DNA of 64,000 bases from a virus (IMGVR_UViG_3300012979_000028:21985-85984); one strand, 5' to 3'. Shown: positions 6,607 to 59,411, counted from the stretch's first letter. Notes: generated from the sequence alone by a model not told the origin. A program made the numbers and translations.

Positions 6607-6767
6607 TACCTTTCTGGCTGCTTTTTACCCAATAATAAATAGATTATCAAAGCAAAAATTCCAAAGAAAGCCCCACAAAATATAGCAAGACCAACGCTTC
6701 TATTCTTGTTATTTGCAACTATTCCACAGCAAATTGCGAAGAACATCATAAATAATAATAGTACCAT
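6607..6767 (-). CDS. small hydrophobic membrane peptide (about 52 aa), below ORF-track cutoff
   Basis: ATG at 6765-6767. Translation MVLLLFMMFFAICCGIVANNKNRSVGLAIFCGAFFGIFALIIYLLLGKKQPER, dominant strand. Confidence 0.35.
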
Positions 6768-6798
6768 ATTTTTCAGTTTTTAAATAAATAATCCTGCG

Positions 6799-7185
6799 TT
6801 ATAATTCATCTTGTCGTATTTTTTCTATTTTATTCTTAGAAATGCTGTCCTCGTATGTTATAAAGATTCTTTTGATTGAATCTATAGATACACTTATAAA
6901 GCCTCCTTCGATGAAGAAAACACTATAGTAATTGCACTTTCCGTCTTTTACAAATTTTAATTTTTCATAGTCAGAATATGGATATTCTTCAAACTCAGAT
7001 GTTGAAATCAGTGGAACTCCATACTTTTGTGTAAACCGATAAACTATGTCATTATAATCAGATTCAAGTTTGGCCCAGGACATATCATAACTGCCTGGTA
7101 GAACTATACGGCAAAAACTTAGAATGTTATAATCTTCCCTTAAAACAAAATCACAACCTAGATATCCCTGAAAAGTACCAGACAT
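6799..7185 (-). CDS. hypothetical protein
   Basis: 128-aa ORF on the dominant strand. Confidence 0.5.
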   Translation of the reverse strand: MSGTFQGYLGCDFVLREDYNILSFCRIVLPGSYDMSWAKLESDYNDIVYRFTQKYGVPLISTSEFEEYPYSDYEKLKFVKDGKCNYYSVFFIEGGFISVSIDSIKRIFITYEDSISKNKIEKIRQDEL

Positions 7186-7381
7186 GTAAATAAAGTTTTT
7201 TTTCTAAGTTATTTTTATTTATTTTACATCCTTTTGTTTGTAAATGAGTAGCCATTTCTAACATACTGCAATCCATGGATTTACCCATAAATTTCAATCT
7301 CTGAGTTGAAGTTGCCTGTTGTGCAAATGAACTAATAAATGTGATGAAAACTGTTAACAATAAAATTAATCTTTTCTTCAT
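7151..7381 (-). CDS. small secreted protein (signal peptide)
   Basis: MKKRLILLLTVFITFISSFAQQ is signal-peptide-like. Confidence 0.4.
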   Translation of the reverse strand: MKKRLILLLTVFITFISSFAQQATSTQRLKFMGKSMDCSMLEMATHLQTKGCKINKNNLEKKLYLHVWYFSGISRL

Positions 7382-7407
7382 AGTTTTTATATTTAGTTTA
7401 TTAATTA

Positions 7408-7533
7408 TTATTTTCTTTTGTGATATACCTTTTTACCATTCTTACTATAATGATAAACTCCACCTCTTGGGCCTACTCTATTCAATCCAAGAAAACCAAA
7501 GATAATAATACAAATAAGAATTAATACTTCCAT
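7408..7533 (-). CDS. 41-aa membrane peptide with C-terminal GPRGGVYHYSKNGKKVYHKRK motif
   Basis: ATG at 7531-7533. Translation MEVLILICIIIFGFLGLNRVGPRGGVYHYSKNGKKVYHKRK. The C-terminus matches the C-terminus of ORF 8362..8847. Confidence 0.35.
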   Translation of the reverse strand: MEVLILICIIIFGFLGLNRVGPRGGVYHYSKNGKKVYHKRK

Positions 7534-7669
7534 ATTTTTTTTCAGTTTTTTAATTTAAAGTTTGATTCAAAATTGTCTAAGTATTTCTCCACTTCATACT
7601 ACTTTTATACCTGAAATTGCTTTAAAGATATAAGGTAGAACTAATATTATTAAAGTTATAATTTCCATT

Positions 7670-8365
7670 TTATTTATTTATTTCTTCAATGTATCCTGCA
7701 GTAAGTATTCCCGATGGTAATGCTATAATTGCTATTCCAACCAGAGAAGATATCATACTTATTACTCTTCCTAAATTTGATATTGGATATACATCTCCAT
7801 ACCCAACTGTAGTTAAAGTACAAGTAGCCCAGTAAATAGCATCTAAGAAATTTTCAAAGAATACTTCGCCTGATTTTGTTACTGGTTCTTCTATATTAAA
7901 CATCACGAGTGCTGTAATATAGATATAAAATAGGGCGAATCCAATTACTGTCAGTAATAATTGTTTCTTTTTTCTAAATACTTTTATTATTATTTTAACA
8001 GGTTTATAATATTCAAGAAACTTTATAATTCTTAACAATCTCAATAATTTCCAAATTCTAAATATTTTAAGATTATTATTGAAATAATTTATTACTGGTA
8101 ATATAGCCATTAAATCTACTATAGACCCTATCGTAAATGGATATTTGATTGGATTTTTAGAAATTATCCACTTAAGAGTGTAATCTATGATAAATACTAT
8201 ACTTACTAATATTTCTGTTATAGTAAATATAATATAATTATCTCTGAACATTAATGGAAAAAGACTAATTATTGTTGACCATAATAATATTCTATTGTAA
8301 ATATTATTATTTATTAAACGCCGAATATTATTAAAATAGTAGTATTTTTCTTTATTCCAATTCAT
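7670..8365 (-). CDS. voltage-gated-type potassium channel (6TM)
   Basis: Selectivity filter TLTTVGYGDVYP. S4-like helix IWKLLRLLRIIKF with a basic residue every third position. Pore helix and S5/S6 segments are present. Confidence 0.75.
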   Translation of the reverse strand: MNWNKEKYYYFNNIRRLINNNIYNRILLWSTIISLFPLMFRDNYIIFTITEILVSIVFIIDYTLKWIISKNPIKYPFTIGSIVDLMAILPVINYFNNNLKIFRIWKLLRLLRIIKFLEYYKPVKIIIKVFRKKKQLLLTVIGFALFYIYITALVMFNIEEPVTKSGEVFFENFLDAIYWATCTLTTVGYGDVYPISNLGRVISMISSLVGIAIIALPSGILTAGYIEEINK

Positions 8366-8847
8366 TTTCTTTTTATATAAGTTTTATTTCCATTTTTATT
8401 AATATAATAACGTCCTCCGCGAGGACCTACATAGATATTGTATTTGTATGACTCATTACTTTTATAAGCCTTATTTCTATTTACTTGTTTCTTTTCAACG
8501 TGACCTTCTTTTTTATCCTTTATAGATTTATCTTCTATAGAGCCTTTCTTGATGATCTGACCTGTGATTACACCAGCCTCTGTGTTAGCTACAACTATAT
8601 AGACGTAATCCTTAACCAAGTTAGCAACGTTAACTACATTAGACTCATAAGAAGCAACCAAAGAACCATCTGCAGAGTAAACAGCTACGCTATTAACACC
8701 TTCGTTAGCTACAGTGATAACATCAGCTGCAGGGTTAGGATAGATAGAGATCTCACCCTTAGCAACAATAGTATCATTCATGCTGTTTTGAGAAAATAAC
8801 GTACATGAATAACCGATAACTAATAGTAAAATTAAAAGTTTCTTCAT
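8362..8847 (-). CDS. secreted protein (signal peptide), C-terminal GPRGGRYYINKNGNKTYIKRK motif
   Basis: MKKLLILLLVIGYSCTLFSQ signal peptide. 4-nt overlap with the channel gene. Confidence 0.55.
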   Translation of the reverse strand: MKKLLILLLVIGYSCTLFSQNSMNDTIVAKGEISIYPNPAADVITVANEGVNSVAVYSADGSLVASYESNVVNVANLVKDYVYIVVANTEAGVITGQIIKKGSIEDKSIKDKKEGHVEKKQVNRNKAYKSNESYKYNIYVGPRGGRYYINKNGNKTYIKRK

Positions 8848-8965
8848 AGTTTTTATTGTTTATTTTTATAATTCACCTACTAATCTCATAAATAAGCCAG
8901 AAAATTAGGAATAAAACCAGAATTGATAATGAATTAAATAACACCATACTTCTTTTTTTTTATTT

Positions 8966-9606: not shown

Positions 9607-10158
9607 TTAGTCTTTATTATTCTTGTTCTTGTAGTAGTCATAAGCTTTCTTAGCACCAACTGTAGCAGCGGCGGGAGCTAGAGTAATACCTGCAATAGCT
9701 GCTCTACCCTTTGCATTTTTCTTAAAGCTAGCTAGATCATGACCTTCTCCCCAAGCATTCTTAATCTTCTTTCCAAGGTTTTCAGCAGTATCAAGGATCG
9801 CTTCTTTACCACGTTTAACTTTATTCTTAGCAATTTCACCCTTAGACTCTTCAACACCAAGCAATTTACCAAGTTTACTATTACGAGTGTTAGATACTAG
9901 ATTTCTAACAGAAGAGCTAGTTTTATCTAATACACCACGACCTTCATATTTACTTAGACCATACATACCTGCTCCAGTTGCTGAAGTTAAACCAAGAGCT
10001 GCGATACCTAGTTTCTGATTTTCAGTTAGTTCATCATTTTTTTTTGCGAACTCTCTCTGAGCAGCCTGGTATCCCTCACAGAATGCTCTTTCTTCTATAG
10101 CTGAAATCAGGTCTTCTGTTTCACTATAGTTACTAAATACTTTTCTTGTTACTCTCAT
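9607..10158 (-). CDS. paralog-family protein (MRVTRK N-terminus, Gly-zipper C-terminal region)
   Basis: 183 aa. C-terminal region ALGLTSATGAGMYGL. Confidence 0.55.
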   Translation of the reverse strand: MRVTRKVFSNYSETEDLISAIEERAFCEGYQAAQREFAKKNDELTENQKLGIAALGLTSATGAGMYGLSKYEGRGVLDKTSSSVRNLVSNTRNSKLGKLLGVEESKGEIAKNKVKRGKEAILDTAENLGKKIKNAWGEGHDLASFKKNAKGRAAIAGITLAPAAATVGAKKAYDYYKNKNNKD

Positions 10159-10285
10159 TTTATTTTATTTTGTTTTTTATTAGTTTATTCTCTTTCAATT
10201 TTAAGGGCAGAGAAGTAAAACAAATTAATAAAGTGGGCAAAAAAGAAAGTAACTAATCTCTCTTAGACTAGCTACTTTACTTCTA

Positions 10286-11512
10286 TTAATCATTTTTCTT
10301 ATTCTTCTGATACAAATAATAACCTCCAGTACCTAAAGCCGCAGTTCCAGTTCCAATACCTATATACTTACCGATATTGCTTTTCTGTCGTTGTGTCTGA
10401 GCTTGAGGGTTATTACTTACTGTACTGCCACTTCCTATAGTCTCTTTAACCGGCATATCAGTATTAGTTACGAATTTTGGTTGTGGCTGTGTAGGTGGTT
10501 CGTATACATTATTCTTTTTCTGCTGCTTTTCTAATATTTTAGTTCTTTCTGGCCTTGTCTCTTCTGTTCTCTTCTTTGCTAATACTCTTTGTTCTCTCTG
10601 TTGCTCTAATGCTTCTTTCTTTTGTTGTTCTAGTGCTGCTGCTATCTCTTTCTGTTGTTCTAATTGTTTTAATGCTTCCTCTCTCTGTTGATTATATGCA
10701 GCATCAGTCAACTCATCCTTAGCTATTTTGAATTTACCAGTCTTTCTATCTACTGAAACAAATGCATTATCTCTTAGCCCTTTTACTTTTCCACTATTAA
10801 AAACTCGAAGGTCATTTAGGTTATAGCTATAGTTGCCCCCGAAAGCAGTATCCTTACCAGCTTTACGATTTGCCTCATTTAACTTATCGAATAAAGCCCT
10901 GTTAGTTGAAACTCTATTACCCTCAGCGTAAACATTATTATACTGATCACTAACTCGACGCAATTCCCGCTTTCTAACATCAGCCTCGTAAGTAGCTTTA
11001 TCAAAATTTCTATTCTTTAGGAAAGCTTCACTCTCTTTTTCTCCTGCCTCCTGTAGTGCTTTAGAATTGTATTTTCTATTTAGTTCTCTGGCAAAATCAT
11101 TTCTAGATTGTTTATTCATTATCGGATTAATAATACGATCTGCTTCCTTTGATGTAATTTTTCCAGCCTTAAAATCTGCCTCCGCCTGATGAAGTATTCT
11201 TTCCTGATTTCTATCAAAGTCTTCTAATTCCTTAGTAAGCTTCTTTCCAAGATTTTTATCCTTATTTCTAAGAATAAAATCAAAATCATTAAAGTTTTCT
11301 GGATTATTCTTTAACCTCTCTGCTTTTCTTGCTACACTAGCTGCTTCATATTCAGCCGAATACTTAGCACTACGTCTTGCCTCTGCTCTAAGATTAAGTA
11401 ACCTGGCAGCCTCTTTATTTCTAGCTTCTCTAACCATTTTCTCAGCACCTTCACCATAAAGAGTTCTTATCTGAGCATAGTTAAAGAATAATTTTTGTCT
11501 TAGAATTCTCAT
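10286..11512 (-). CDS. paralog-family coiled-coil protein with C-terminal glycine-zipper TM
   Basis: 408 aa, starts MRILRQK. Long charged coiled-coil. C-terminus GIGTGTAALGTGGYYLYQ. Confidence 0.6.
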   Translation of the reverse strand: MRILRQKLFFNYAQIRTLYGEGAEKMVREARNKEAARLLNLRAEARRSAKYSAEYEAASVARKAERLKNNPENFNDFDFILRNKDKNLGKKLTKELEDFDRNQERILHQAEADFKAGKITSKEADRIINPIMNKQSRNDFARELNRKYNSKALQEAGEKESEAFLKNRNFDKATYEADVRKRELRRVSDQYNNVYAEGNRVSTNRALFDKLNEANRKAGKDTAFGGNYSYNLNDLRVFNSGKVKGLRDNAFVSVDRKTGKFKIAKDELTDAAYNQQREEALKQLEQQKEIAAALEQQKKEALEQQREQRVLAKKRTEETRPERTKILEKQQKKNNVYEPPTQPQPKFVTNTDMPVKETIGSGSTVSNNPQAQTQRQKSNIGKYIGIGTGTAALGTGGYYLYQKNKKND

Positions 11513-17431: not shown

Positions 17432-18770
17432 CAAGGAGTATCGCTACTTCTCCCCGGTTCTCAGGTTTTATCCATGAACTCCTATGAGTTTGCCTCACAG
17501 ATTAGACTATATCTTCATCTTTATTTCTAAAGAGCTTACCGTTTCCACTATGCGAATTTTATAGTGTACTCCCTTTCGGGATAGTCGTTGAGGTTCAATC
17601 TGAAGATTGATTAGTCAGACCAATCTTTTTTATTTCATCTATAAGAGTTTGAGAGTCTGTAATTACATCATACGGATACTCAAATTCTTTTCCGAGATTA
17701 GAGTAGTATAAAACTTTAATACCATGTTCAGTACAAAGGTCTAACTTATTCTTATCTCTTAGTTTTACTTCTTTTAAATTATCCTCTCCTCCAAAGAACA
17801 CAACACTTTTAAAATGTTGAATTCCTTGACATTCAATAATAATATTATAGTCTGGTAAGTAAAAATCTACAAATTGTTTAGAATTATACACCAGCCAATC
17901 CCATGATTTTTGTTCTTCAGCCTTTATTGAGTTTTCATTTAAAATATTTCTTACGTAATCCTCTAAATGGGAACTTTTCACACATTGCGGGCATCTACAG
18001 CCTTGTAAATGGCTCTGAGCTTCCTGGAAAAACTCCCCATGTTCCGGACAGATTATACAAACTTCATCATGAAGATTATTAAATTTAACATTATCATAAT
18101 TATATCTAAAATTATGAATTTTATTTCCTCTTTCTTTGAAAGTTTCAATAGGCATTCTAAATCTTTTTGATAAATTAATTAATTTACAATTAGGACACCC
18201 TCTTCCAATTAGATGTTTAGAAGGACTTTGTTGAAATTCAGTTCCGCATTTATTGCATATTATTGTAACTTTTTCACTAGATCCTTTATAATCTACTTTT
18301 GAATAGGAGAAATTATTTCCATGTATTTTGGAAGCCTTTAATAGAAAATCATCCAGGGAAGTTCTAATTGCCTTCATCTTCTCCTTTCCGCAAATTGGGC
18401 AACCACATCCCCTTAAATGACTTCCAGCTTGCTGATAAAATTCATAATTGTGATTATTACATATAATAGGGATTTTATTTTTTGAACTAATACTATTATC
18501 TACTTTAGAATAATCATATTTATCTCCATGAATTTTTCTTGCCCTTTCAATAAATTTTTCTATAGTTAATTTTTCACTCATTGTACATTGTAATTAAATT
18601 TTATTTTAGATTAAACCTGCTGATTAACTCTATTCACTAGATTTTTACTATAAGCGACTAAATCTTATAGTACTAGTGACCTACGTAAATGTTAATTTAC
18701 TTCGAGTTTTTCCAGCATTTAGTAAGTAATAATTAAGTATCGCTACTTAACAGCGCACATTTTATTATAC
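17432..18770 (-). mobile_element. group I intron carrying a homing-endonuclease ORF
   Basis: 5' core at 18600-18770 (ACTTACTAAATGCTGGAAA...AGTAAAAATCTAGTGAATAGAGTTAATCAGCAGG). 3' core at 17432-17600 (CGACUAUCCCGAAAGGGAG, P8 hairpin CACUAU..AUAGUG, AAGAUAUAGUC). The ORF sits between them. Confidence 0.6.
17595..18581 (-). CDS. intron-encoded putative homing endonuclease: three zinc-ribbon repeats + Vsr/DUF559-like nuclease domain
   Basis: Triplicated module HG..Y.YSKV......K..IIC..HG.F.Q....HL.G.GCP.C. C-terminus FVDFYLPDYNIIIECQGIQHF resembles the DUF559/Vsr-type endonuclease core. Confidence 0.6.
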   Translation of the reverse strand: MSEKLTIEKFIERARKIHGDKYDYSKVDNSISSKNKIPIICNNHNYEFYQQAGSHLRGCGCPICGKEKMKAIRTSLDDFLLKASKIHGNNFSYSKVDYKGSSEKVTIICNKCGTEFQQSPSKHLIGRGCPNCKLINLSKRFRMPIETFKERGNKIHNFRYNYDNVKFNNLHDEVCIICPEHGEFFQEAQSHLQGCRCPQCVKSSHLEDYVRNILNENSIKAEEQKSWDWLVYNSKQFVDFYLPDYNIIIECQGIQHFKSVVFFGGEDNLKEVKLRDKNKLDLCTEHGIKVLYYSNLGKEFEYPYDVITDSQTLIDEIKKIGLTNQSSD

Positions 18771-32802: not shown

Positions 32803-35523
32803 TTAGCTAAATTCAACTACAATCTTAGAATCAGCGTCAACGTCTAGCTTTACTTTAGTTTTATCACTGACACTTTCTTCTAGCATCTTCTTACAAATTT
32901 CCTTCTGAATGTAGTCGTTGATCAATCGTTTCAAAGATCTAGCGCCATACTTAGGATCTACTTTAGAAACAACTAGCTCTTTTACCTTTGAAGTAGCTTT
33001 GATATCAAGTTTTCTTTCTTTCTTAATCATATCATGCAACTTCTTTAGCTCAAGGTCGTAGATATTTCCTAGTTTATCCTTATCTAGACTATTGAATACG
33101 ACAATCTTAGTTAGTCTGTTAAGGAACTCTGGACGAAATTCATTGTTAACCTCTTTCATCACGGTATTAACATCAAACTTCTTCTTTTCCTCACCTTCCA
33201 ACTTTCCGAATCCAATACCACTACCTTTCAGTTCTAGAGCCTTAGTACCTACATTTCCAGTGAAGATAATGATACAGTTTCTACAGCTTACTTTTTCACC
33301 AGAGCTTAGAGTAATTTCACCTTCTTCCAGCATATTAAGCCAGATATTATATAGGTTACTGCTACTCTTTTCAATCTCATCAATTAGTAGAACTGTGTAA
33401 GGCTGTCTTTTAAGAATATACAACCTAGGCTCTGTACTATCAAAACCAACATAACCTGGAGCAGATCCTAAGAGTTTACTTTCACTCCAATCTTGCATAT
33501 ATTCACTGCAGGAAATAGTTACAAGATTTTTCTCACCACCAAAGAACTCCTCTGCAATTGTTTTAGCCATCAAGGTTTTTCCTACACCAGTACATCCAAC
33601 AAACAAGAAGGATGCAATAGGTTTCTTTGGATCACGTAGTCCTAGTAGATTCTGTTGTAATGCGATACTCAACTCTTCTACTGCCTCTTCCTGACCTACA
33701 ACTTTCTTTTCAATCTGAGCTTTCATTACTCTAACTTTGTCTAGGTCAGTACTCTTTATCTTATCAACAGGTACACCGGAAGTTTCAGAAATTACTTTAA
33801 CCACATCATCAATAGTAACTGTAGTCCAAGAAAGTCTATCCTTCTCTAGTTTGGCTTTTTGCTTTTCTAGATCCAGCTTAAGTTCATCAATCTTATCTTT
33901 GAGTTCAGAAGCCTTGTCGAAATTATCAAAGTCGTTTAGGATAATATCATTCTTTGTTTTACTTAGACTAGCAATTTCATTTTCTAGTGTTTTAATCATA
34001 GAAGTGTCTGCCGGTCTAGAAATTTTAACCTCTGAACCTGCTTTATCCAAGATTCTAATAGCTTTAGCAGGGAAGAAGCCATCGTAAATATATCTATCTG
34101 CCAATTCTACACAAGCGATCAGGGCATCATCGGCGTACTTTACTTTGTGATATTTCTCGTAAACCTTTGAAACTCCCTTAACTATGCTTATTGTATCCTG
34201 AATTCCTGGTTCTCCGATAAAGATAGGTCCAAAACGTCTGACTAGAGCTTTATCTTTTTCAATAAATTTTCTATACTCGGCTGTTGTAGTAGACCCGATG
34301 CACTGAAATTCTCCTCTACTCAAGAAAGGTTTTAGAATGTTTGCCATATCACCATTACCCTCTTTTGCACCAGCTCCAGCACCCATCATATTGTGAATTT
34401 CATCAATATATACAATGACATTCTTAGCATTAATCACCTCTGTAATGATAGTCTGTAGTCTCTCTTCAAACTGGCCTCTATACATACAACCAGCCACTAC
34501 AGCATTAACATCGAGATTGTAAATTACCTTATCTTGTAGAAATTCAGGTACTCTCTTATCTTTCTTTGCAATAAGTCCAGCCAAGAACTCTATTATAGCC
34601 GTCTTACCACAACCAGGATCACCCAAGAGTAGAGGATTATTACAAAGGCGACAACTAAGAACTCTAATAATCTCCATGACCTCATTATCTCTACCAATAA
34701 CTGGATCATAGTTGCTATTAAGTGCTTTCTCATTCATATTAATAGCAAAGGTATCTAGAGTTGGAGTGTTAGTTTCTTTTTTCTTGAATCCTGAAACAGC
34801 TCCATCCATGCCAAACTTCTCAAACTCTTTCTTGGCACTCTTCTTAGCTTTTTCGTAGTCATCCTCTTTACTACTCTCAGCCACTCTCTTCTTTACCCAA
34901 TCCTCTACATTCTTCTCTAGGTATCGTTTGAAGTCCTCCGCCATGTCATCATCTTCTTCACCGTTAGATTGTCTTTTCTTGAATTCAAATCTACTAAGAG
35001 AGGGAGACTTCTTGTAATACTGCTCAATGTCAATACCATACTTCTTTAGAACAGTCAATGAATCCTCGTAAGTTAACTTGAATTCTTTGATAGATACTTC
35101 CATGGTCAAGAATCCGATAATGATGTGTGAAGTATCTAGAGAAAACTCATCTGGATCATCTCCCTTCATCTGATAAGAAGCATTCAGTATATAGATACAC
35201 TTCTTAATGAATCTATCTAGCTCATCTGTATACTCACACTTGTCCGGATCTCCCATGATTTCAACTTTAGCAGCCTCTTTGAAACAATCATTTAGCTCGT
35301 TACATAAGTTGTCGCGATCTGTAATTGAAAGATTATTAATTAACTCTAAGAATATTGGACAGTCTACATTTCTAGTAGAATCACTCAAACTATCTCTGTA
35401 AGTTCTGACAATACTTAGAATTAATGAACTAGCGGTGATCTGATTTAGCTGCTGTCCCGTTGATAGAATAGCTGCTCTGCTTATAATCTCGCTTAGCTCT
35501 CTACTAAATTTTACTCTTTTCAT
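32803..35523 (-). CDS. ClpC/ClpB-like Hsp100 AAA+ chaperone (two NBDs + Clp_N repeats)
   Basis: NBD1 LLLGDPGCGKTAI...VIVYIDEIH. NBD2 FLFVGCTGVGKTLMAK...VLLIDEIEK plus sensor-2 region GARSLKRLI. N-terminal Clp_N-like repeats. Confidence 0.85.
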   Translation of the reverse strand: MKRVKFSRELSEIISRAAILSTGQQLNQITASSLILSIVRTYRDSLSDSTRNVDCPIFLELINNLSITDRDNLCNELNDCFKEAAKVEIMGDPDKCEYTDELDRFIKKCIYILNASYQMKGDDPDEFSLDTSHIIIGFLTMEVSIKEFKLTYEDSLTVLKKYGIDIEQYYKKSPSLSRFEFKKRQSNGEEDDDMAEDFKRYLEKNVEDWVKKRVAESSKEDDYEKAKKSAKKEFEKFGMDGAVSGFKKKETNTPTLDTFAINMNEKALNSNYDPVIGRDNEVMEIIRVLSCRLCNNPLLLGDPGCGKTAIIEFLAGLIAKKDKRVPEFLQDKVIYNLDVNAVVAGCMYRGQFEERLQTIITEVINAKNVIVYIDEIHNMMGAGAGAKEGNGDMANILKPFLSRGEFQCIGSTTTAEYRKFIEKDKALVRRFGPIFIGEPGIQDTISIVKGVSKVYEKYHKVKYADDALIACVELADRYIYDGFFPAKAIRILDKAGSEVKISRPADTSMIKTLENEIASLSKTKNDIILNDFDNFDKASELKDKIDELKLDLEKQKAKLEKDRLSWTTVTIDDVVKVISETSGVPVDKIKSTDLDKVRVMKAQIEKKVVGQEEAVEELSIALQQNLLGLRDPKKPIASFLFVGCTGVGKTLMAKTIAEEFFGGEKNLVTISCSEYMQDWSESKLLGSAPGYVGFDSTEPRLYILKRQPYTVLLIDEIEKSSSNLYNIWLNMLEEGEITLSSGEKVSCRNCIIIFTGNVGTKALELKGSGIGFGKLEGEEKKKFDVNTVMKEVNNEFRPEFLNRLTKIVVFNSLDKDKLGNIYDLELKKLHDMIKKERKLDIKATSKVKELVVSKVDPKYGARSLKRLINDYIQKEICKKMLEESVSDKTKVKLDVDADSKIVVEFS

Positions 35524-45776: not shown

Positions 45777-46754
45777 TTATATTATAGAAATGTTAATTGT
45801 ATCGTCTTCAACCAATTCCTCATAAGATTTAATAGTCCATAGTAGATTGAAACTTTTATCTTTCTTTGGATCTATGTGAATTGAGTTACGGAGGAAAACA
45901 GTATCTTTAAATTCCTTACAAGCTTTAAGAATTTCTAGGATCACTTCGAATATTAATCTAAGACAAACTTTATTTCTCATTATAGCTAGTTTGATTATAG
46001 CGAAGTCCTGTTTTCTCAAGCTTCCTATATTAATCTCTTCACCATTTTTAAGTAGTCTGAATATAGATTTTATGTTATTCTTTTCAGTGTTATAGAATTT
46101 AATACATTTTTCTCCAATCTTTAGTCTCTTAGTTTTTATTGCCCTAGCTTTATTAAAAAGGCTATATCTTGAATGGTGTTTAGAATCATAGCTTACAAGT
46201 TCGGGGAATATAATCTCATACTCTCCAACTTTTATTCTATCAGATTTATTTTCTATTGTGTATAGTTCTGACAGGTTGATTAACTGTAAGCCATCAAGAT
46301 TTTCAAGACTTATAATTTTAGGAAAGCCAGGAATCCAATCTAAGAACCAAATATCATTACGACTAGGAGGATTTAAGTGATTAATAACTTTCTTAAACAT
46401 TGAATACTCGTGAGGTAATGTATTCTTAAAGTAGATTGGATCAATAATAAATAGTTGAAGGTATCTATCTCCTAATATTCTTGAGTAGTAGAATTCTTTT
46501 ATATTTCTCAAGATTCCGTCTACTATACTTTGTCTTTCGCTTTTTCTCTTACTATCAACGCAATTCCAACAAGGCTGATAATAAAAGTTTGGTTCAAGAT
46601 AAGTAAGAGGTTTTAATGATTCCCCACATCTATAACAGTAACTTTCTTCGCTCCCTGATTCTAAGAGTTTAATTTCTGCATAGTCTTGATAACTTAGAAA
46701 ACCAGGCTTTAAAACATTTTCATATAATATTCCTGGGTCACTCAATATTTTCAT
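45777..46754 (-). CDS. hypothetical protein with CxxC zinc finger
   Basis: CYRCGESL...CWNC. Confidence 0.5.
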   Translation of the reverse strand: MKILSDPGILYENVLKPGFLSYQDYAEIKLLESGSEESYCYRCGESLKPLTYLEPNFYYQPCWNCVDSKRKSERQSIVDGILRNIKEFYYSRILGDRYLQLFIIDPIYFKNTLPHEYSMFKKVINHLNPPSRNDIWFLDWIPGFPKIISLENLDGLQLINLSELYTIENKSDRIKVGEYEIIFPELVSYDSKHHSRYSLFNKARAIKTKRLKIGEKCIKFYNTEKNNIKSIFRLLKNGEEINIGSLRKQDFAIIKLAIMRNKVCLRLIFEVILEILKACKEFKDTVFLRNSIHIDPKKDKSFNLLWTIKSYEELVEDDTINISII

Positions 46755-47664
46755 AATTGCCTAAATAAAATTTTGTAATAAATTGTTTACGTAATTTTTT
46801 TGCTAGAACTGAAAAATCTGGATGAGCATCTGGAGCACACCTTAGATAGAAAAATCCCGCTTTTTCTGTTGTATCTTCTGGCTTGTATGTAAAATCTTCA
46901 ACAAAACCGGTAGTACAGATTTCAGTCATAACGTCATTACATAAAACTCCTCTTGCATCTTCTGGCTTTAAGTAATTTCTCTCTTCCAGGTATTCTTTTT
47001 CACAATCTTCCCAGAACTTATTTCTCTTCTCAGCTACAGGATTAACTTTTACCAATTCATTCCATAGCTCTTCACCTTCTAAGTTCTCTCCGATTTGTTC
47101 CCCGAGTTTATAAGCCCATTGAGGAATAATAAAAGAGATTCCAGCCCCATTTTTCTCAAGATCATAGGCTATATATCTTTGACTAGCCTGAAGTATTGAA
47201 TTTAATCTATGTCTAACTAATTCATGAGATACAGCTCTACTACAAATCCACCTAACTGTAACTCTTGGCTTGAAATTAATATTATCAGGCTCACTCCAAT
47301 ATTTATCTAGTAATTCTTTAGGATCCTTTTGATTTTTATTGCAAAAGTGAAGAATCTCTCTATAGTTCGTAGTAAAATAATAGTAATCCAAGTCTTCTGT
47401 AAACTTAGTATATGGATTATTCTTAAAGTAAATAGTCTCTACGAAAGATGGAAATTTAGGAATCTTTAAGTAAACTGTTCCCTGTTCAAAACAAGCCCAG
47501 TGTCCTCTTTTCATTAACATATCACAGAATCTAATATAAGAATCTTCAGATATAGAACTTTCCGTGTGATATGCAATTCTAGCAACTCTCTCAATGTGTT
47601 TGAACATACCTACTATACCTTGTGGCTGTTCTAGGATTTCTACACTACTATCTATTACTTTCAT
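46738..47664 (-). CDS. thyX: flavin-dependent thymidylate synthase ThyX
   Basis: ThyX signature RHRLNSILQASQRY (RHRxxSxxxxSxRY). Confidence 0.8.
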   Translation of the reverse strand: MKVIDSSVEILEQPQGIVGMFKHIERVARIAYHTESSISEDSYIRFCDMLMKRGHWACFEQGTVYLKIPKFPSFVETIYFKNNPYTKFTEDLDYYYFTTNYREILHFCNKNQKDPKELLDKYWSEPDNINFKPRVTVRWICSRAVSHELVRHRLNSILQASQRYIAYDLEKNGAGISFIIPQWAYKLGEQIGENLEGEELWNELVKVNPVAEKRNKFWEDCEKEYLEERNYLKPEDARGVLCNDVMTEICTTGFVEDFTYKPEDTTEKAGFFYLRCAPDAHPDFSVLAKKLRKQFITKFYLGNYENIE

Positions 47665-50062: not shown

Positions 50063-52225
50063 TTACTTGCCTATATTTTGTAACTCTTCCTCAATACATT
50101 TTTCATAGTAATCATAAGAGTTATATTCCAAGGCTTCCTCTAATCTACTTTCACTTAGACTCTCCCCATGCTCTTTAACTAATTCTAAGAAGCGAGACTG
50201 AGACATTTCACCTTTCTGACCAAGTTCTTTTCCAACCACTAAGAGCAATTTTTTATTTTCCTCTAAGATTTGTTTAGTTCTATCTAGGCAGCGTTTGAAA
50301 AATCCTCTTACTTCAATCATAGCTTCATCATCATTCATACCAAGTGGAATACCGTTATTTAATGATTCTCCATCCTTAGTATAAGACATAAAGTTTTTCA
50401 GACCACATCTATAAACAGCATTAGTTAATTTATCCCAAGCATCACAGATATCACTACTACTGCCTAATAATCTCTTGTCATCATCCTGGAACGTAATTTT
50501 CTCAGCATACCAACCTCCAGCACTAATACAAACATCATTCTTTATATCCATGATGCTATCAATCTCATTAATTCTATCTTTATCATGAGTTACACAGAAG
50601 CCTCCATGATTAGTAGAAACTGCAACAATACTAAGAGGAAGTTTACCAGTCAGATAGGACATTACAATAGCGTGTCCTGCCTCATGAATTCCACAGATAA
50701 ATCTAGTCTTTCGGTTTACTGGATCTCTATCTCCTCCTAAGTTTAATTTAATAGTCTTAGTATCTGTATGTCCATTAGAATACTTTAGATAAACCTGAAC
50801 CTCTGGAACCTTAAAATCTGATTCGTCAACATCAATTTCTACACTAATATCTTTCTGATCTCCCACATATAATAAGATGTCAGATAAGAATGGTGTAAAT
50901 AGTGAGTTGATTGTTGATAGAATAGGTCTTACTCCTTGGGTTGGGAATACACTCTCCGAATAAAGTAACTGTAAGAATGAAAGTGTAGTTTTAATCTCTA
51001 CTCCAAACAATTTCTCAGTTTCATTACAGATTCTATCAACCTCTTTCTTGATAATATCCTTAAAGTGTTGTTTCCCTAGAGTTGGATATTTAATCAGGTT
51101 ATTTCCGAATCTGGCTATCTGTTCTGGTCTAAATCTACGACGAAGTGCATCTTTAATATCTCCAATAGTTACTTTAGATGTCTCTTCATGAAATATATCA
51201 GCATCAAGGTCAGAACTCATATCACCTGAAACTTGATATGCCTCATCTAAGTTACCAATACAAAAAACCAAGCCCTTAGATACGTCAATGGTCACTGGAG
51301 TTACTAAGCAGCTTCTCACTTGGTTAATATAGTTGTAAAATTCTCCTAGTGTTTTAATGCTATTAACTTTATCAAATACAGTTCTCATTGTAGCACTGCC
51401 GTTAAGTTTTTTCTCTAAAGTTAATAAGCTCTTTAGAAGTTTAGAGGATACTGTATCTGTACAATCTTCAACTAGTAGAGAAAGACTTCTGTAATTATCC
51501 TGAATCTCTTCCTCATTTTTCTTTGTTCTTTTATAATTCTCAAATCGTCGAGGCTCCCATAAAAATCTATCCTTGTAATAAATAAATCCTAGGGAGTCTA
51601 GTATTTTCTTAACTTCATCTCTATTAACAACTTTTCCATCTACTAGCTTTATATTCGCATTACTAGGAGACTCTTGTAAAAATTCTTCAAGAGAGGTTAG
51701 AAAATTGAAGATCTCATAGGTTTGATAGTCATTATTTTCATTAAACTCTACAAGACCTGAGTCAATAATAGTAAAGATAGATTGTAAGGATTGATTTCTA
51801 ACTTCACATCCATTCTCATCTATAAATCTTGCATGTTGAAACTCATCAAAGATAAATACAGTTTTCTCACAGAGTTGGTTTATAGATCGAGGGTCTTCTA
51901 TTTCTCCTACCATAAAATAATCATACAACTTCCTAGAAATAGACTTATAACTATCTTCACCAGCTTCAGATCCACAGTCTACAGCTATTGTACTTTTCTG
52001 AAGATCTAGTAATTCCAGAAGTCTTCTTACTACACTAGTTTTTCCTACTCCACTCATACCCCAGAGAGAAATAACAACAGGTCTTTTTAAAACTTCTGGA
52101 GTAATATACCAAGGGGTGATGCTTTTTCCAATCTCATCTATAATAGAGTCTAACCCTATAAATTCAGTCTTTAATTGGGATAGTACTTCATCTAGCTTTT
52201 TGATCTTTTCAAGTCTTTCACTCAT
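50063..52225 (-). CDS. FtsH-like protein: divergent P-loop/AAA-like N-terminal domain + M41 zinc metalloprotease domain
   Basis: Walker A WGMSGVGKTS. Walker B VFIFDEFQ. C-terminal GIHEAGHAIV (HEXXH) plus ...SAGGWYAEKI...GSSSDI, parallel to the FtsH peptidase domain. Confidence 0.65.
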   Translation of the reverse strand: MSERLEKIKKLDEVLSQLKTEFIGLDSIIDEIGKSITPWYITPEVLKRPVVISLWGMSGVGKTSVVRRLLELLDLQKSTIAVDCGSEAGEDSYKSISRKLYDYFMVGEIEDPRSINQLCEKTVFIFDEFQHARFIDENGCEVRNQSLQSIFTIIDSGLVEFNENNDYQTYEIFNFLTSLEEFLQESPSNANIKLVDGKVVNRDEVKKILDSLGFIYYKDRFLWEPRRFENYKRTKKNEEEIQDNYRSLSLLVEDCTDTVSSKLLKSLLTLEKKLNGSATMRTVFDKVNSIKTLGEFYNYINQVRSCLVTPVTIDVSKGLVFCIGNLDEAYQVSGDMSSDLDADIFHEETSKVTIGDIKDALRRRFRPEQIARFGNNLIKYPTLGKQHFKDIIKKEVDRICNETEKLFGVEIKTTLSFLQLLYSESVFPTQGVRPILSTINSLFTPFLSDILLYVGDQKDISVEIDVDESDFKVPEVQVYLKYSNGHTDTKTIKLNLGGDRDPVNRKTRFICGIHEAGHAIVMSYLTGKLPLSIVAVSTNHGGFCVTHDKDRINEIDSIMDIKNDVCISAGGWYAEKITFQDDDKRLLGSSSDICDAWDKLTNAVYRCGLKNFMSYTKDGESLNNGIPLGMNDDEAMIEVRGFFKRCLDRTKQILEENKKLLLVVGKELGQKGEMSQSRFLELVKEHGESLSESRLEEALEYNSYDYYEKCIEEELQNIGK

Positions 52226-53028: not shown

Positions 53029-53271
53029 TTATTGGTTAATACTATTGTTAACTTTTAATCTAGTTACGATACGACCTCTTGTTAAATCGTATGGGCTGAC
53101 TTCGATTTTCACTCTATCTCCTACAATAATTCTGATAAAGTTTTTTCTAATCTTGCCACTTATTGTACATATTATTTCTTGATTTGCCACATCCGCTAGT
53201 ACTCTAAACATTGCATTTCCTAGTTCTGCAACAACTTCACCTTCTAGTTCTATATTATCTTGCTTTGCCAT
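53029..53271 (-). CDS. infA: translation initiation factor IF-1 homolog
   Basis: [24 protein letters not shown]...[35 protein letters not shown] is collinear with bacterial IF-1 (MAKEDNIEMQGTV..LPN.MFRV...ISGKMRKNYIRIL.GD.V..E.TPYDL.KGRI..R). Confidence 0.8.
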
Positions 53272-55934: not shown

Positions 55935-56618
55935 TTATAAACAGCTCTGAATAATTTGTCGAACTGCCATCTTTGCTATACACTCACTTCCAAACTCACT
56001 GTCAAAGTAAAATCTAGACTTAGTAGAGATAATTTCAACCTCAAGCTCATCTCCATCTTTATCTACTGACTTCACAATTACTTTCACTGATTGCTTTCCT
56101 GGATCAATCTTATACTTATCCCAGAATATCTTAGGAACTTGAATAGGAGTATCGATTTCAGTTAGCTCCAAGTCACTTAAAGGAATTCCTAGATCTTCAA
56201 CATCAATACTATCAGCTGTTATTGTATTGTACTTTGCATCAAATTCTAGAATAAGCATCTCTTTAAATCTCTCAGCTCCTCCAAATCCAGTCTCAGAAGT
56301 TACAGGGATTATAGAATTTTCATCATTAATCTGAAAAAGCGTACTATCCCATTTAAAAGTATCTCCCGGTTTTAGTTCTGGTGGATTACCCAAGAACTCT
56401 CTATTTTGAATTAAGTTCTCAGGTTTCAATGCATCTTCACTCCCTGGATCTACACCATCTTTTAATTTGGCTGGAAAATCACTACTCTCCCAATCCACTA
56501 TTCCATTCAGCTTTGTTAATAGGTTAGGGATTTCAATGAAGTAGTAACGATCCTTTAACTTTTCATCACTAGGATCAAGACCGTGTTTCATGCCTCTACC
56601 GAAAATAGATAAAATCAT
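55935..56618 (-). CDS. hypothetical protein
   Basis: 227 aa. 4-nt overlap with the upstream IMPDH-like gene. Confidence 0.5.
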   Translation of the reverse strand: MILSIFGRGMKHGLDPSDEKLKDRYYFIEIPNLLTKLNGIVDWESSDFPAKLKDGVDPGSEDALKPENLIQNREFLGNPPELKPGDTFKWDSTLFQINDENSIIPVTSETGFGGAERFKEMLILEFDAKYNTITADSIDVEDLGIPLSDLELTEIDTPIQVPKIFWDKYKIDPGKQSVKVIVKSVDKDGDELEVEIISTKSRFYFDSEFGSECIAKMAVRQIIQSCL

Positions 56619-57691
56619 AAGTGTATATATTTTACATTATTCTTAAAAGACTTCCAATCAATACTAGAAGTCATAACAAATCCATAATTAAAACACTCAT
56701 ACATTCCCTTAAGCCAAGTTTCTAGATTAGAGTTTATAACTACATTCTCACATCTAGAGTCTACTGGCTTTTTCTTTTTTACAGTACTCTCCCACTTTTC
56801 TACACTAGAATAACCTGCTCTTTCTGCCTGAGTTTGATTTGTAGTGTTTCCTTTATAGATTCTAACTAATTCTAATCTCTTCAGTGAATCTACATCCATG
56901 TTAACCAGGTCTTCTTTATTCTGAGGTTCTAGGACTCTTTTCTTCTCGTTAGTATCATAGACCTCTTTATAAATATCACCATTAGCCTCTAGTAGTTTTG
57001 CAAATTCTCTACCAATCATCACGTAGTCTGCACCTAAAGCAATACATTTTAGGATATCTGACGGACTCTTAATACCACCATCAGCAATAATCTTAGTCTG
57101 CTTTAATCCAACTCCTGTAGTCTTCTTAGTTGTATTTATGTCTATCAGAAGCGAAGCCATAGGATAATAGAAACCGTACTTCTCATAATCCACTAGTGAT
57201 CCAGAACTTAAACCAACTCTTACATAATCAAAATCAGCTCTACAATAGTCTAGGTAAGTAGAAGGGTTTCCAATATTACCACCCATTATTGATACTCTAG
57301 GACCATAAATTCTTCTCAAGTTCTTTCCAATTTCTAGAACCTCTGTATCATGACCATTTCCAGCATCAATACAAATTCTAATCAGTGGTGTTGGAGACTT
57401 ATTGATGTTAACTATAAAATGCTGCTTAACTTCCTCCTTACTGAAAGCTACAAAGATATAACCACAAGCCTCTAATCTAAATTCAATAGACTCAGTTCTC
57501 GGGATTACTGGCTTTATTCCATTATTAGGCCATATTTTCCAGTTTGAAGATCCCACTACAGCTTCCATTGGACTCGTAAAGATAGGTAGAGACGGTTCAA
57601 CATCATCTACTGCAAAATTAAAATTACCTTGTACAGAATTACCTGAATTAAGCTCTGTAGGTAATAATGCTATGCCATCAAGTTCTAACAT
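56615..57691 (-). CDS. IMPDH/GMP-reductase-family TIM-barrel protein lacking the canonical catalytic cysteine
   Basis: PIFTSPMEAVVG, RICIDAGNGH, IADGGIKSPSDILKCIALGADYVMIG match GuaC/GuaB blocks. The GIGPGSVCTTR position reads GLSSGSLVDYE. Confidence 0.65.
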   Translation of the reverse strand: MLELDGIALLPTELNSGNSVQGNFNFAVDDVEPSLPIFTSPMEAVVGSSNWKIWPNNGIKPVIPRTESIEFRLEACGYIFVAFSKEEVKQHFIVNINKSPTPLIRICIDAGNGHDTEVLEIGKNLRRIYGPRVSIMGGNIGNPSTYLDYCRADFDYVRVGLSSGSLVDYEKYGFYYPMASLLIDINTTKKTTGVGLKQTKIIADGGIKSPSDILKCIALGADYVMIGREFAKLLEANGDIYKEVYDTNEKKRVLEPQNKEDLVNMDVDSLKRLELVRIYKGNTTNQTQAERAGYSSVEKWESTVKKKKPVDSRCENVVINSNLETWLKGMYECFNYGFVMTSSIDWKSFKNNVKYIHL

Positions 57692-57732: not shown

Positions 57733-58599
57733 TTACATACTTATACTATCCATGTACCCAGTTAAGAGCTTTACATAATCCGCATATTCCTGAGTTTCAA
57801 ATATCCACTCTCCCCTCTGTCTAGTCTCTTCTCCCGGATAATGTATGTCAACCTCTTTAAATACTCTACACGGATTGGCTTGAAGAATGAATACCTTGTT
57901 AGAAATATAGGCAACTTCTTCAATACTATGACTTACATTGATAATAGTAGGGTCATCTAGTGAAGGGTCATAGAATATCTTCAACATAATATTCTGTACT
58001 TCCCTCTTCATCTTAATATCCAATGCACCTGTAGCTTCATCAAATAAAATAATCTTTGAATTACAAGCTAGACAACGGGCAATAGCTACTCTCTGTTGTT
58101 GACCCCCGGATAGTTTAGAAGGGTATTTATCTACGTGATCCTTTAAACCTACACAATCTAGAAGTTCGAGGGCTCTATTCTTAGCTTCCGCCTCACTAAT
58201 TCCTCTACAAGTCATAGGTATCATCACATTCTCTAATACAGTATACCACTCAAAGTTACTGTAAGTCTGAAATACCATTGGAAAACTGTGATTACTACTT
58301 ACAGGCTCTCCATAAACTTTTACAGTACCTTCATTAAATTTACTAAGTCCTGCAATAACCTTTAACATCTGAGACTTACCACAACCTGAAGCTCCCATGA
58401 TAGAAACTAGTTGAGCTTGACCAGGAATATCAGGGATGGTTAAGTTAAAATTCTCAAATAACTTATACTCATTAGGCAAGCCAGGGTTAAAGATGTGTGT
58501 TATATTCTCTAACTGGATTACTGGAGTTAGGTTATTATTCTGCTGACTACTTGGTAAATCAGAAGCCATCAGATTATCTATGTTTATTTGTCTACTCAT
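57733..58599 (-). CDS. ABC transporter ATP-binding protein (NitT/TauT family)
   Basis: Walker A GASGCGKS. Signature LSGGQQQRVAIAR. Walker B ILFDEATGALD. Confidence 0.85.
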   Translation of the reverse strand: MSRQINIDNLMASDLPSSQQNNNLTPVIQLENITHIFNPGLPNEYKLFENFNLTIPDIPGQAQLVSIMGASGCGKSQMLKVIAGLSKFNEGTVKVYGEPVSSNHSFPMVFQTYSNFEWYTVLENVMIPMTCRGISEAEAKNRALELLDCVGLKDHVDKYPSKLSGGQQQRVAIARCLACNSKIILFDEATGALDIKMKREVQNIMLKIFYDPSLDDPTIINVSHSIEEVAYISNKVFILQANPCRVFKEVDIHYPGEETRQRGEWIFETQEYADYVKLLTGYMDSISM

Positions 58600-59411
58600 T
58601 TTCTTTTGAATTTAAAGATTACTGGTTCGAATAATTTAATAATCTGATCCTGCAATATTCCAATCAAGATTATAATCAACAAGAGGGCATAAACACTATC
58701 AATCTGACTTTGCTTCGTCATTGTGTTTATTAAAGCTCCTAAACCACCATCTTTGTTTATATTTTCTGCAATAGTTACGTAAGTATAGGATATTGCTACT
58801 AAACTTCGAATATCACTATAAACTCTTGACATAACAAAAGGGACATATATCTTCCAGAATGTATCCCACTTTCCTAATCCGATAGTTTTAGCTGTCTGAA
58901 GGTATACATTATCTTTCGGGTTATTAGGGTCTTGTAATTCAGTAACTCTTTGTGTAACTACCGGAAGAATATAGATCAAAATACCAAGAGCCAAGAAACT
59001 AGCCTTCATATCAAATCCAATTCCGAATATAGCTACCATAATTCCACTAACTGCAGGAAGAGGTAAAAATCTTATTGCTTCTAGTGGCTTTTGGAACATA
59101 GCTCTAGGAAGTGGATATATACCTATAATAAAACCTGCAGGGATAGCTATAATCAGTGCATATACGTAGCCAAGCAGATTAAGAGAGATAGTATACCAGA
59201 TATTACTAAAGAGCCTAGACTCCGTAATTAATCTAGGAATACTTGTTAATACATCTATCGGGTTTGGTAAAATTTTATTAGATATCCAACCCATCTTTGT
59301 AACTAGAAACCAAAAAAGTAGGAGGAATATACCCCCTACTATACCAGTTATTATTGATTTCTTGGATTCTAGACTTCCTCCGAATTTCAATAACTCCTTC
59401 ATACTTCTCAA
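58596..59411 (-). CDS. ABC transporter permease (NitT/TauT family)
   Basis: 6-TM topology. 4-nt overlaps with both neighbours. Confidence 0.7.
   Translation of the reverse strand: MRSMKELLKFGGSLESKKSIITGIVGGIFLLLFWFLVTKMGWISNKILPNPIDVLTSIPRLITESRLFSNIWYTISLNLLGYVYALIIAIPAGFIIGIYPLPRAMFQKPLEAIRFLPLPAVSGIMVAIFGIGFDMKASFLALGILIYILPVVTQRVTELQDPNNPKDNVYLQTAKTIGLGKWDTFWKIYVPFVMSRVYSDIRSLVAISYTYVTIAENINKDGGLGALINTMTKQSQIDSVYALLLIIILIGILQDQIIKLFEPVIFKFKRK

Follow-up and report, generated by a model that had tools for sequence, protein, structure and literature searches.

The 64,000-nt stretch of viral DNA IMGVR_UViG_3300012979_000028:21985-85984, here called the window, carries on its minus strand, at positions 7670..8365, a gene for a six-transmembrane (6TM) voltage-gated K+ channel of 231 amino acids (aa). 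This open reading frame (ORF) initiates at ATG and encodes an S1-S4 voltage sensor, an S4-S5 linker, and an S5-P-S6 pore, and its product is devoid of any cytoplasmic domain. The assignment draws on the ORF itself, Pfam, matches to PDB sequences, an AlphaFold2 model, and Foldseek. The channel gene is the central member of a cassette of about 1.47 kb that also comprises a gene for a 161-aa secreted protein upstream (8362..8847, minus strand) and a gene for a 41-aa membrane protein downstream (7408..7533, minus strand). The explanation that we consider probable is that the gene encodes a complete, minimal 6TM Kv subunit, carried by a phage-like genome of about 326 kb in a mobile cassette, which would supply a K+ conductance of use in conflict or for fitness. 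As judged from sequence comparison, the same explanation includes the descent of the phage channel from a chromosomal family of the Prevotellaceae/Bacteroidales, followed by trimming and amelioration.

The TVGYGD selectivity filter announced in the original prediction is read directly from the sequence as TTVGYGD (residues T185-D191; 7793..7813, minus strand), and this motif is invariant across 27 homologues. Equally well founded was the claim that an S4 helix with periodic Arg and Lys residues is accommodated in a protein of only 231 aa: the gating-charge segment (residues 100-115; 8021..8068, minus strand) contains six basic residues at a spacing of three, namely, K100, R103, K106, R109, R112, and K115, the last four of which lie opposite the basic S4 residues R, R, R, and K of Kv2.1 in the HMMER alignment. 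Four Arg positions of S4 are at least 90% conserved in the family alignment. The charge-transfer residues F58 and D61 in S2 and D84 in S3 occupy the canonical positions in the alignment with Kv2.1 and are invariant in the family, and the pore region includes an S6 'PSG' gate. Homology to the ion-transport family, on which the original prediction also depended, is far above chance, since Pfam Ion_trans (PF00520) matches residues 29-225 with 75.2 bits (cut-off 25, E = 5.9e-21); Ion_trans_2 scores 54.5 bits. A phmmer search of PDB sequences returned 230 matches at E <= 0.01, with KCNQ5, Kv2.1, and Shaker ranking first at about 1e-15. The equivalog model NF040645 for MVP, the hyperpolarization-activated archaeal channel, was not matched (35.3 bits against a cut-off of 300), and gating polarity is not readable from the channel sequence.

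The AlphaFold2 model, made from 27 homologues, has a mean predicted local distance difference test score (pLDDT) of 82. It contains helices S1 to S4 (residues 21-39, 45-68, 79-94, and 101-119), an S4-S5 linker helix (121-132), S5 (134-158), a pore helix (173-185), and S6 (197-230), so that the filter is framed by S5, the pore helix, and S6, where at least two helices had been expected. In a Foldseek comparison with the PDB, the top matches were all Kv channels, namely, Kv4.2, Shaker, Kv1.2, Kv2.1, and KCNQ1, and the superposition on Kv4.2, Shaker, and Kv1.2 covered both the voltage sensor and the pore (E about 1e-8, TMq 0.6-0.78, 210-250 columns), at an identity of 20-26% to the solved Kv chains. 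Matches among the viral structures of BFVD extended over the pore module alone (75-124 columns), none of them at E <= 0.001. The profile, the filter following a pore helix, the S4 segment with its charge-transfer center, and the fold place the protein among the 6TM voltage-gated K+ channels of the voltage-gated ion channel (VIC) superfamily. Sequence and profile, together with the fold and the genomic surroundings, support the presence of a voltage-sensor K+ channel on a phage-like genome.

A search of 5.8 billion proteins retrieved 4378 homologues of the channel, the closest of which is 95% identical and encoded on a related phage fragment (L003), whereas the remaining ones are at most 60% identical and about 248-250 aa long. 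The long contigs with homologues are ordinary bacterial chromosomes on which gltX, DsbD, LuxS, and PorZ are found nearby, and one homologue is named 'ion transporter [Porphyromonas sp.]'. A species scan, in which one genome per species was used, detected a relative in 433 genomes, and the best 80 were almost all from Prevotella, Prevotellaceae, or Bacteroidales of the rumen or herbivore gut. In a neighbor-joining tree computed without bootstrap, the sequences from phages group on one long branch, and its sister is a single Bacteroidales clade within the Prevotellaceae/Bacteroidales radiation. Compared with the chromosomal 6TM family (the Porphyromonas sp. protein P0107 and loci L001 and L011-L015), the phage channel has a like architecture at 44-60% identity and shares F58, D61, D84, the S4 arginines, CTLTTVGYGD, and AIIALPS; all family-invariant columns are retained. 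It is, however, 17-18 aa shorter, with a deletion of about 9 aa in the S2-S3 loop, has lost the basic C-terminal tail of the bacterial proteins, differs at the N-terminus, and carries Lys in place of Arg at two positions of S4. The G+C content of the channel gene is 24.3% (17% at third codon positions), compared with an average of 33% for the phage and a median of 44% for the bacterial homologue genes. Because its G+C content is so far below that of the bacterial genes, the channel gene is neither a contaminant or chimera nor recently captured, and recent capture from a host was likewise rejected on the basis of the identity of at most 60% and the fully ameliorated composition. The channel and its L003 copy differ by one nonsynonymous and four synonymous changes in the aligned part, a pattern that is consistent with constraint, although the counts are small. 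From the sequence data, the protein is to be classed as a member of the prokaryotic 6TM Kv family with Bacteroidales ancestry.

The cassette is delimited by two copies of a 45-nt direct repeat identified in a repeat search. The left copy (8821..8865) covers the 5' leader and the start of the signal peptide of the 161-aa gene, and the right copy (7355..7399) the start of the next gene, which encodes a 76-aa signal-peptide protein. The copies are 80% identical, are spaced by 1466 nt, and both match a single copy at positions 1554-1613 of L009, a 196-kb scaffold with core genes that are 92-100% identical; in L009 the cassette is absent and the neighboring genes abut. In L003, identity is 95.6% over the block that begins with the basic C-terminal tail of the upstream protein (tail 1), contains the channel, and closes with the 41-aa gene, whereas the flanks are only 75-88% identical or unrelated, and the body of the upstream gene is swapped for that of a different, 405-aa protein with the same signal peptide and tail. 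In L093, the whole cassette is 93.8% identical and is located on the other side of the neighboring 76/128-aa gene, and in L004 and L005 it is arranged as in the window. Tail-channel-tail order is retained in every cassette-bearing contig. The four configurations among related contigs therefore show that the channel travels in a discrete, dispensable, and recombination-prone three-gene cassette.

The leader upstream of the 41-aa gene (7514..7597, minus strand), found by the repeat search and with cross-matches in L003 and L093, has a paralogue in the leader of a gene for a 53-aa membrane protein (6745-6785), and a 13-mer of the two leaders occurs only at these two places within the window. A scan for sigma-70 promoters around the cassette gave an uninformative result, 15 sites compared with 17.7 expected, promoters of Bacteroidota being outside its coverage. 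A terminator-like hairpin at 8412-8426 was dismissed as a chance structure, as it lies within the sequence coding for tail 1 and is not conserved in L003. Next to the cassette, ORFs of 76 and 128 aa (6799-7381) overlap by 35 nt in different frames and correspond to a single ORF in L009 (194 aa) and L093 (189 aa); in the window phage a frameshift, present in two samples, splits this gene.

The original prediction had further placed the channel in a 4-nt overlap with the gene of a secreted protein, and this overlap is found in the ATGA shared by the channel start and the stop of the 161-aa ORF, from which co-transcription of the two genes may be inferred. The 161-aa protein opens with a signal-peptide-like N-terminus (MKKLLILLLVIGYSCTLFSQ), followed by a beta-sandwich resembling the type A sorting domain of the type IX secretion system (T9SS; residues 35-101), a Lys-rich linker, and the basic tail. 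It reaches 29.3 bits against TIGR04183 (cut-off 23) and 26.5 bits against Pfam Por_Secre_tail. The T9SS type A domain is not at the extreme C-terminus of the 161 residues, where it is found in the relative P0130; being internal, it cannot serve as a C-terminal secretion signal. In the 41-aa protein, an N-terminal hydrophobic helix precedes a second basic tail (tail 2). This protein differs by one amino-acid change in L003 and L093, and the DNA differences in its tail part are mostly synonymous.

Before their stop codons, the 161-aa and 41-aa proteins end in YVGPRGGRYYINKNGNKTYIKRK and RVGPRGGVYHYSKNGKKVYHKRK, respectively, which share the pattern GPRGG..YxxxKNGxKxYxKRK. According to a motif census and DNA alignment, the segments coding for tail 1 (VGPRGGRYYINKNGNKTYIKRK; 8365..8430, minus strand) and tail 2 (VGPRGGVYHYSKNGKKVYHKRK; 7411..7476, minus strand) are the left and right copies of a direct repeat of about 70 nt. 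A six-frame scan located the motif G.RGG just twice in the window, in both cases at the C-termini of the ORFs flanking the channel. Tail 1 matches Pfam PBCV_basic_adap (PF08789) with 15.9 bits (E = 0.014) and tail 2 with 13.1 bits (E = 0.11), compared with a cut-off of 20.4, and apart from these sub-threshold matches no Pfam family was matched by either tail. A database search showed that the same 22-residue tail, at 85-96% identity, forms the C-terminus of many signal-peptide proteins of Bacteroidota with varied cargo (SH3b, HNH, SNase, and DUF5763), several of which have a precomputed PF08789 assignment. In the proteins P0131-P0207, the tail is a nearly invariant stretch of 22 aa, (I/V)xTGPRGGRYYINKNGNKTYIKRK. 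Chloroviruses provided the first description of the PBCV_basic_adap family. In PBCV-1, the DNA-associated proteins of the virion were found to include kinases bearing this domain (PMC3281028), for which reason the basic tail may bind DNA or other polyanions. As far as its sequence goes, the 22-aa tail may be a sorting, anchoring, or polyanion-binding module.

The genome that carries the cassette is very likely that of a huge (jumbo) phage of gut or rumen type, an identification that, at the level of sequence, draws on replication genes, accessory genes, and relatives. An identical channel protein is encoded on the ENA contig ERZ27246411:k141_1772331 (325,884 bp), of which the window corresponds, reverse-complemented, to about 144.6-208.6 kb. 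The same protein is found on a contig of 5.3 kb in a second sample, which also yielded an independent assembly of the far end of the window. The window has a G+C content of 33%, its ORFs of at least 150 aa are almost all on one strand, and its large ORFs are mostly orphans with neither a Pfam nor a PHROG match. A scan of the window for tRNA genes detected none. It encodes a T4-type split topoisomerase II, the large subunit of which matches phrog_543 (7.8e-70) and is adjoined by a separate topoIV-like subunit, a DEAD-like helicase common to Edwardsiella, Acinetobacter, and Psychrobacter phages, and a divergent family A DNA polymerase (PolA). A Toprim primase, ThyX, a DHH phosphoesterase, a homing endonuclease, ClpB, an FtsH-like AAA/M41 protein, IF-1, and an ABC transporter operon are also encoded. 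A viral contig of 122 kb in IMG/VR is syntenic with the window over the helicase, topoisomerase II, 73-aa, and topoIV genes at 43-60% identity.

Several of these genes deserve description in their own right. The large subunit of topoisomerase II (1347-2966) has 539 aa and no intein, whereas its counterparts in L009 (7457-9511) and L010 (2976-5030) have 684 aa and contain an intein-splicing domain; in L009, a T5orf172 gene is in addition inserted between the helicase and topoisomerase genes. The homing-endonuclease-like gene (17595-18581) is located in the replication region and matches phrog_559 (5.3e-62) and DUF723, with a treble-clef zinc finger. Protein quality control is represented by a full ClpB-type disaggregase of 906 aa (32803-35523) and the FtsH-like AAA/peptidase M41 protein of 720 aa (50063-52225), and nucleotide metabolism by an IMPDH/GMP-reductase-like protein (56615-57691) and the ThyX-type thymidylate synthase (46738-47664). 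The homologue of IF-1/eIF-1A (53029-53271; 80 aa, 70 bits in Pfam) lies between orphan genes. The ABC importer operon (57733-60907) encodes a BPD_transp_1 permease, an ABC ATPase, and a 499-aa substrate-binding protein of the NMT1/phosphonate-binding type that is fused to an OmpA domain. Two proteins of 408 and 183 aa (9607-11512) end alike in a hydrophobic Gly/Ala-rich segment followed by YY..KNK(K/N)ND; their genes are absent at the corresponding place in L009, and the 183-aa protein has a partial paralogue at L009 13377-13481.

In the closest Bacteroidales clade, as in the phage, a gene for a signal-peptide protein precedes the channel gene with the same 4-nt overlap. In L001, L011, L012, L015, and L092 this protein has two DUF5763 modules, and in L001, L011, L012, L015, and L094-L097 the channel gene is followed by a translationally coupled gene for a signal-peptide Endonuclease_NS, L092 ending too soon past the channel to show a downstream gene. 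The coupled endonucleases, which have a DRGH motif, are encoded at 10728-11510 in L001, at 3674-4456 in L011 and L015, at 2266-3048 in L012, and in L094-L097. By sequence, a channel with a secreted Endonuclease_NS, often together with a secreted DUF5763 protein, looks like an undescribed conserved module. The phage locus differs in that it is without the downstream endonuclease and has tail-bearing neighbors instead, and a G.RGG neighbor was found at 0 of 80 bacterial channel loci. Since DUF5763 and the tail are often fused, a three-way association results, in which the channel is linked to DUF5763, DUF5763 to the tail, and the tail to the channel. That the bacterial DUF5763 protein is a homologue of the phage 161-aa protein was rejected because no domain is shared and the two are linked solely through fusions with both modules. 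Upstream of the channel gene, other clade members have either an Hhe/PDC-S37-like helicase-nuclease (PADLOC E = 2.6e-216) or AAA ATPases with weak similarity to IetA. The helicase-nuclease, of 957 aa, is encoded at 22-2895 in L013 and L014, two Bacteroidales metagenome-assembled genomes, directly upstream of the channel homologue, and this neighborhood suggests a defense-island setting. In one case, an ISL3 transposase is located near a bacterial channel homologue.

According to the explanation that we favor, the channel would be expressed from the phage genome in the infected cell and would insert as a tetramer into the inner membrane of the host; its position among replication and accessory genes of the same strand suggests early or middle expression. 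It would then add a voltage-gated K+ conductance, which would draw the membrane potential to the K+ equilibrium potential and permit rapid re-equilibration of K+. The benefit would most likely lie in conflict or fitness, for instance through the exclusion of superinfecting phages or through stabilization of the infected cell, and not in a core step of replication. Such a role is favored because the cassette is dispensable and mobile, because a homologue in the temperate phage Dulem virus 33 is encoded beside a repressor, and because the bacterial neighbors include nucleases, AAA proteins, and Hhe-like proteins.

A number of observations weigh against this explanation. No PADLOC model matched any of the three cassette proteins or their neighbors, and the flanking tails may be recombination substrates alone and not functional partners. 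Many of the more distant Prevotella homologues are found in varied housekeeping contexts. Pfam and PHROG searches of about 30 of the larger ORFs in the 64-kb window turned up no gene for a capsid, portal, terminase, or tail protein. The signal for selection on the channel rests on just five substitutions. A frameshift affects the 5' end of the channel gene in L093, and the channel N-terminus carries indels between variants, so that the gene may be decaying in some lineages. The L093 frameshift is located in an A-rich run (1660-1790), where gene calling yields a 193-aa product without most of S1, and reflects either an assembly error or gene decay in that lineage.

Among the alternatives, plain K+ homeostasis fares best and is a possibility of some weight, even if doubtful. 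The channel would then merely restore or maintain cytoplasmic K+ and turgor through electrophoretic uptake during a long jumbo-phage infection, as it does in the host and with no part in conflict, and its neighbors would be unrelated. The family is widespread in Prevotellaceae chromosomes and occurs there in varied housekeeping neighborhoods; these contexts agree with this alternative to the same extent as with a role in conflict, which is a further point against the latter. It also accords with the physiology-type genes of the window (ABC transporter, ClpB, FtsH-like protein, IF-1, and ThyX) and with the alteration of host K+ conductance by T4 and T5 on infecting (PMC6163359). However, near-identical phages can do without the cassette, which moves as one block, the temperate-phage homologue is encoded in an immunity region, and the closest bacterial clade adjoins nuclease and defense-like genes. 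Considering the sequence context, a role in conflict or fitness is slightly preferred.

It is unlikely that the three genes form one functional unit, with the tailed proteins acting as auxiliary subunits, localizers, or tethered blockers of the channel, for which the acidic outer vestibule (E159, E160, E167, E171, and D175) would be the target. Such a unit would explain that tail-channel-tail order is kept even when the body of the upstream gene is swapped, and it agrees with the upstream signal-peptide DUF5763 protein and identical ATGA overlap in the closest bacterial clade, as well as with the fusion of DUF5763 and the tail in many Bacteroidota proteins. Yet the tail is present on many proteins without a nearby channel, G.RGG neighbors are missing from all 80 bacterial channel loci, the Pfam matches of the window tails are below threshold, and recombination of the repeated tail-coding DNA alone can explain the arrangement. 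Quite improbable is the more far-reaching idea that huge Bacteroidales phages have in the cassette a self-contained and mobile weapon directed at the membrane potential, Rex-like in character, in which the flanking proteins would control the activity or placement of the minimal Kv channel through their conserved basic tails. This weapon would have descended from a bacterial module comprising a DUF5763 protein, a channel, and a secreted nuclease, and would exclude competing phages or counter depolarizing host defenses.

We consider it very unlikely that the contig is not phage but bacterial, a plasmid, or a chimeric assembly, in which case the channel would be an ordinary bacterial gene. The missing virion genes would be in line with this, as would two negative searches: megablast of a 25-kb part of the window matched none of the GenBank phages, and an IMG/VR scan with the channel protein yielded no relatives. 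Against it stand the independent assembly of the same arrangement in several samples, the G+C content of 24% compared with 44% in the bacterial genes, the T4-type split topoisomerase II, the phage helicase and PolA matches, the homing endonuclease, and the intein in relatives, the synteny with an IMG/VR relative, and about 64 kb of co-directional, largely orphan ORFs without tRNA genes. That the channel is a decaying passenger, an unexpressed or nonconducting remnant of a captured host operon that hitchhikes and is being lost, would account for the L093 frameshift, the N-terminal indels, the truncation of loop and tail relative to the bacterial homologues, and the absence of the cassette from L009, but is highly improbable in view of functional motifs that are all intact, including the columns invariant in 27 homologues, a fully ameliorated composition implying long residence, a transmembrane core almost free of nonsynonymous change while the flanks diverge to 75-88%, and a confident AlphaFold2 fold.

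The original prediction held that viral K+ channels are known mainly from eukaryotic algal viruses and that one in a phage-like genome would be notable. The studied viral K+ channels are indeed the two-transmembrane (2TM) pores of algal viruses, but phage channels have already been catalogued, so that the distinction lies in the full voltage sensor, which is uncommon. Greiner et al. (2018) list K+ channels in phages of Mycobacterium, Vibrio, Acinetobacter, Pseudomonas, Streptomyces, and Lactobacillus, mostly 2TM proteins of 117-124 aa, and voltage is never mentioned in their survey (PMC6163359). PHROG 7872, annotated as 'unknown function', matches the window channel at E = 2.5e-34 (residues 18-229 on profile positions 10-218 of 254), and the channel thus gives this family, which includes 6TM relatives, a predicted function. 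Dulem virus 33, a GenBank phage, encodes a 6TM relative of 235 aa (XCD07631.1; 42% identity) annotated as 'Ion transport protein'. Literature searches for voltage-gated K+ channels of phages and jumbo phages yielded the 2018 survey and work on algal viruses only, with no description of a virus-encoded voltage-sensor channel; such a channel is uncharacterized. With sensor and pore alone in 231 aa, the protein would rank among the smallest natural Kv channels and would therefore be a convenient minimal model for voltage gating. If the favored explanation is correct, a gated K+ conductance can be set up by tailed phages in the cells that they infect, which joins phage biology with the physiology of the bacterial membrane potential. 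The cassette structure and the association with basic tails are new elements, and the cassette together with its ties to DUF5763, nucleases, and the basic tail suggests a conflict or cell-envelope module in Bacteroidota.

Comparison with known systems sets the channel apart in several respects. With KvAP, KvLm, MVP, and the eukaryotic Kv1, Kv2, Kv4, and Kv7 channels it shares the voltage-sensing domain and pore, the S4-S5 linker helix, the gating charges, the charge-transfer center, and the GYG filter, but it is without a T1, C-terminal, or other cytoplasmic domain. The chlorovirus channel Kcv and other algal-virus channels are likewise virus-encoded K+ pores with a GYGD-type filter and, like the window channel, are thought to manipulate the membrane potential of the host; Kcv-type channels reside in the internal membrane of the virion and act at entry (PMC9405923). 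They are, however, 2TM pores of about 80-125 aa without a voltage sensor, whereas the window protein is a 6TM channel of 231 aa with bacterial ancestry, and its identification as a Kcv-type miniature channel is ruled out by this architecture, by BFVD matches to the pore only, and by the Bacteroidales origin of the nearest relatives. The catalogued phage channels (Greiner et al. 2018, PHROG 7872, and Dulem virus 33) are K+ channel genes on tailed-phage genomes, as the window channel gene very likely is too, yet the latter belongs to a genome of about 326 kb and is contained in a repeat-bounded cassette. Dulem virus 33, in turn, is a temperate phage of 40 kb that encodes its channel in the immunity region, where the channel gene overlaps that of a cI-like repressor in the orientation of the integrase; this channel has the filter TTMGYGD. 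RexB of phage lambda is a prophage membrane channel encoded beside cI that depolarizes cells and in this way excludes other phages. The analogy with RexB is functional: RexB is, and the window channel would be, an ion-conducting membrane protein borne by a phage, and the Dulem homologue is likewise encoded beside a repressor, although no relationship in sequence or fold exists and no RexA-like partner was identified for the window channel, whose architecture and ancestry are those of the bacterial Kv family.

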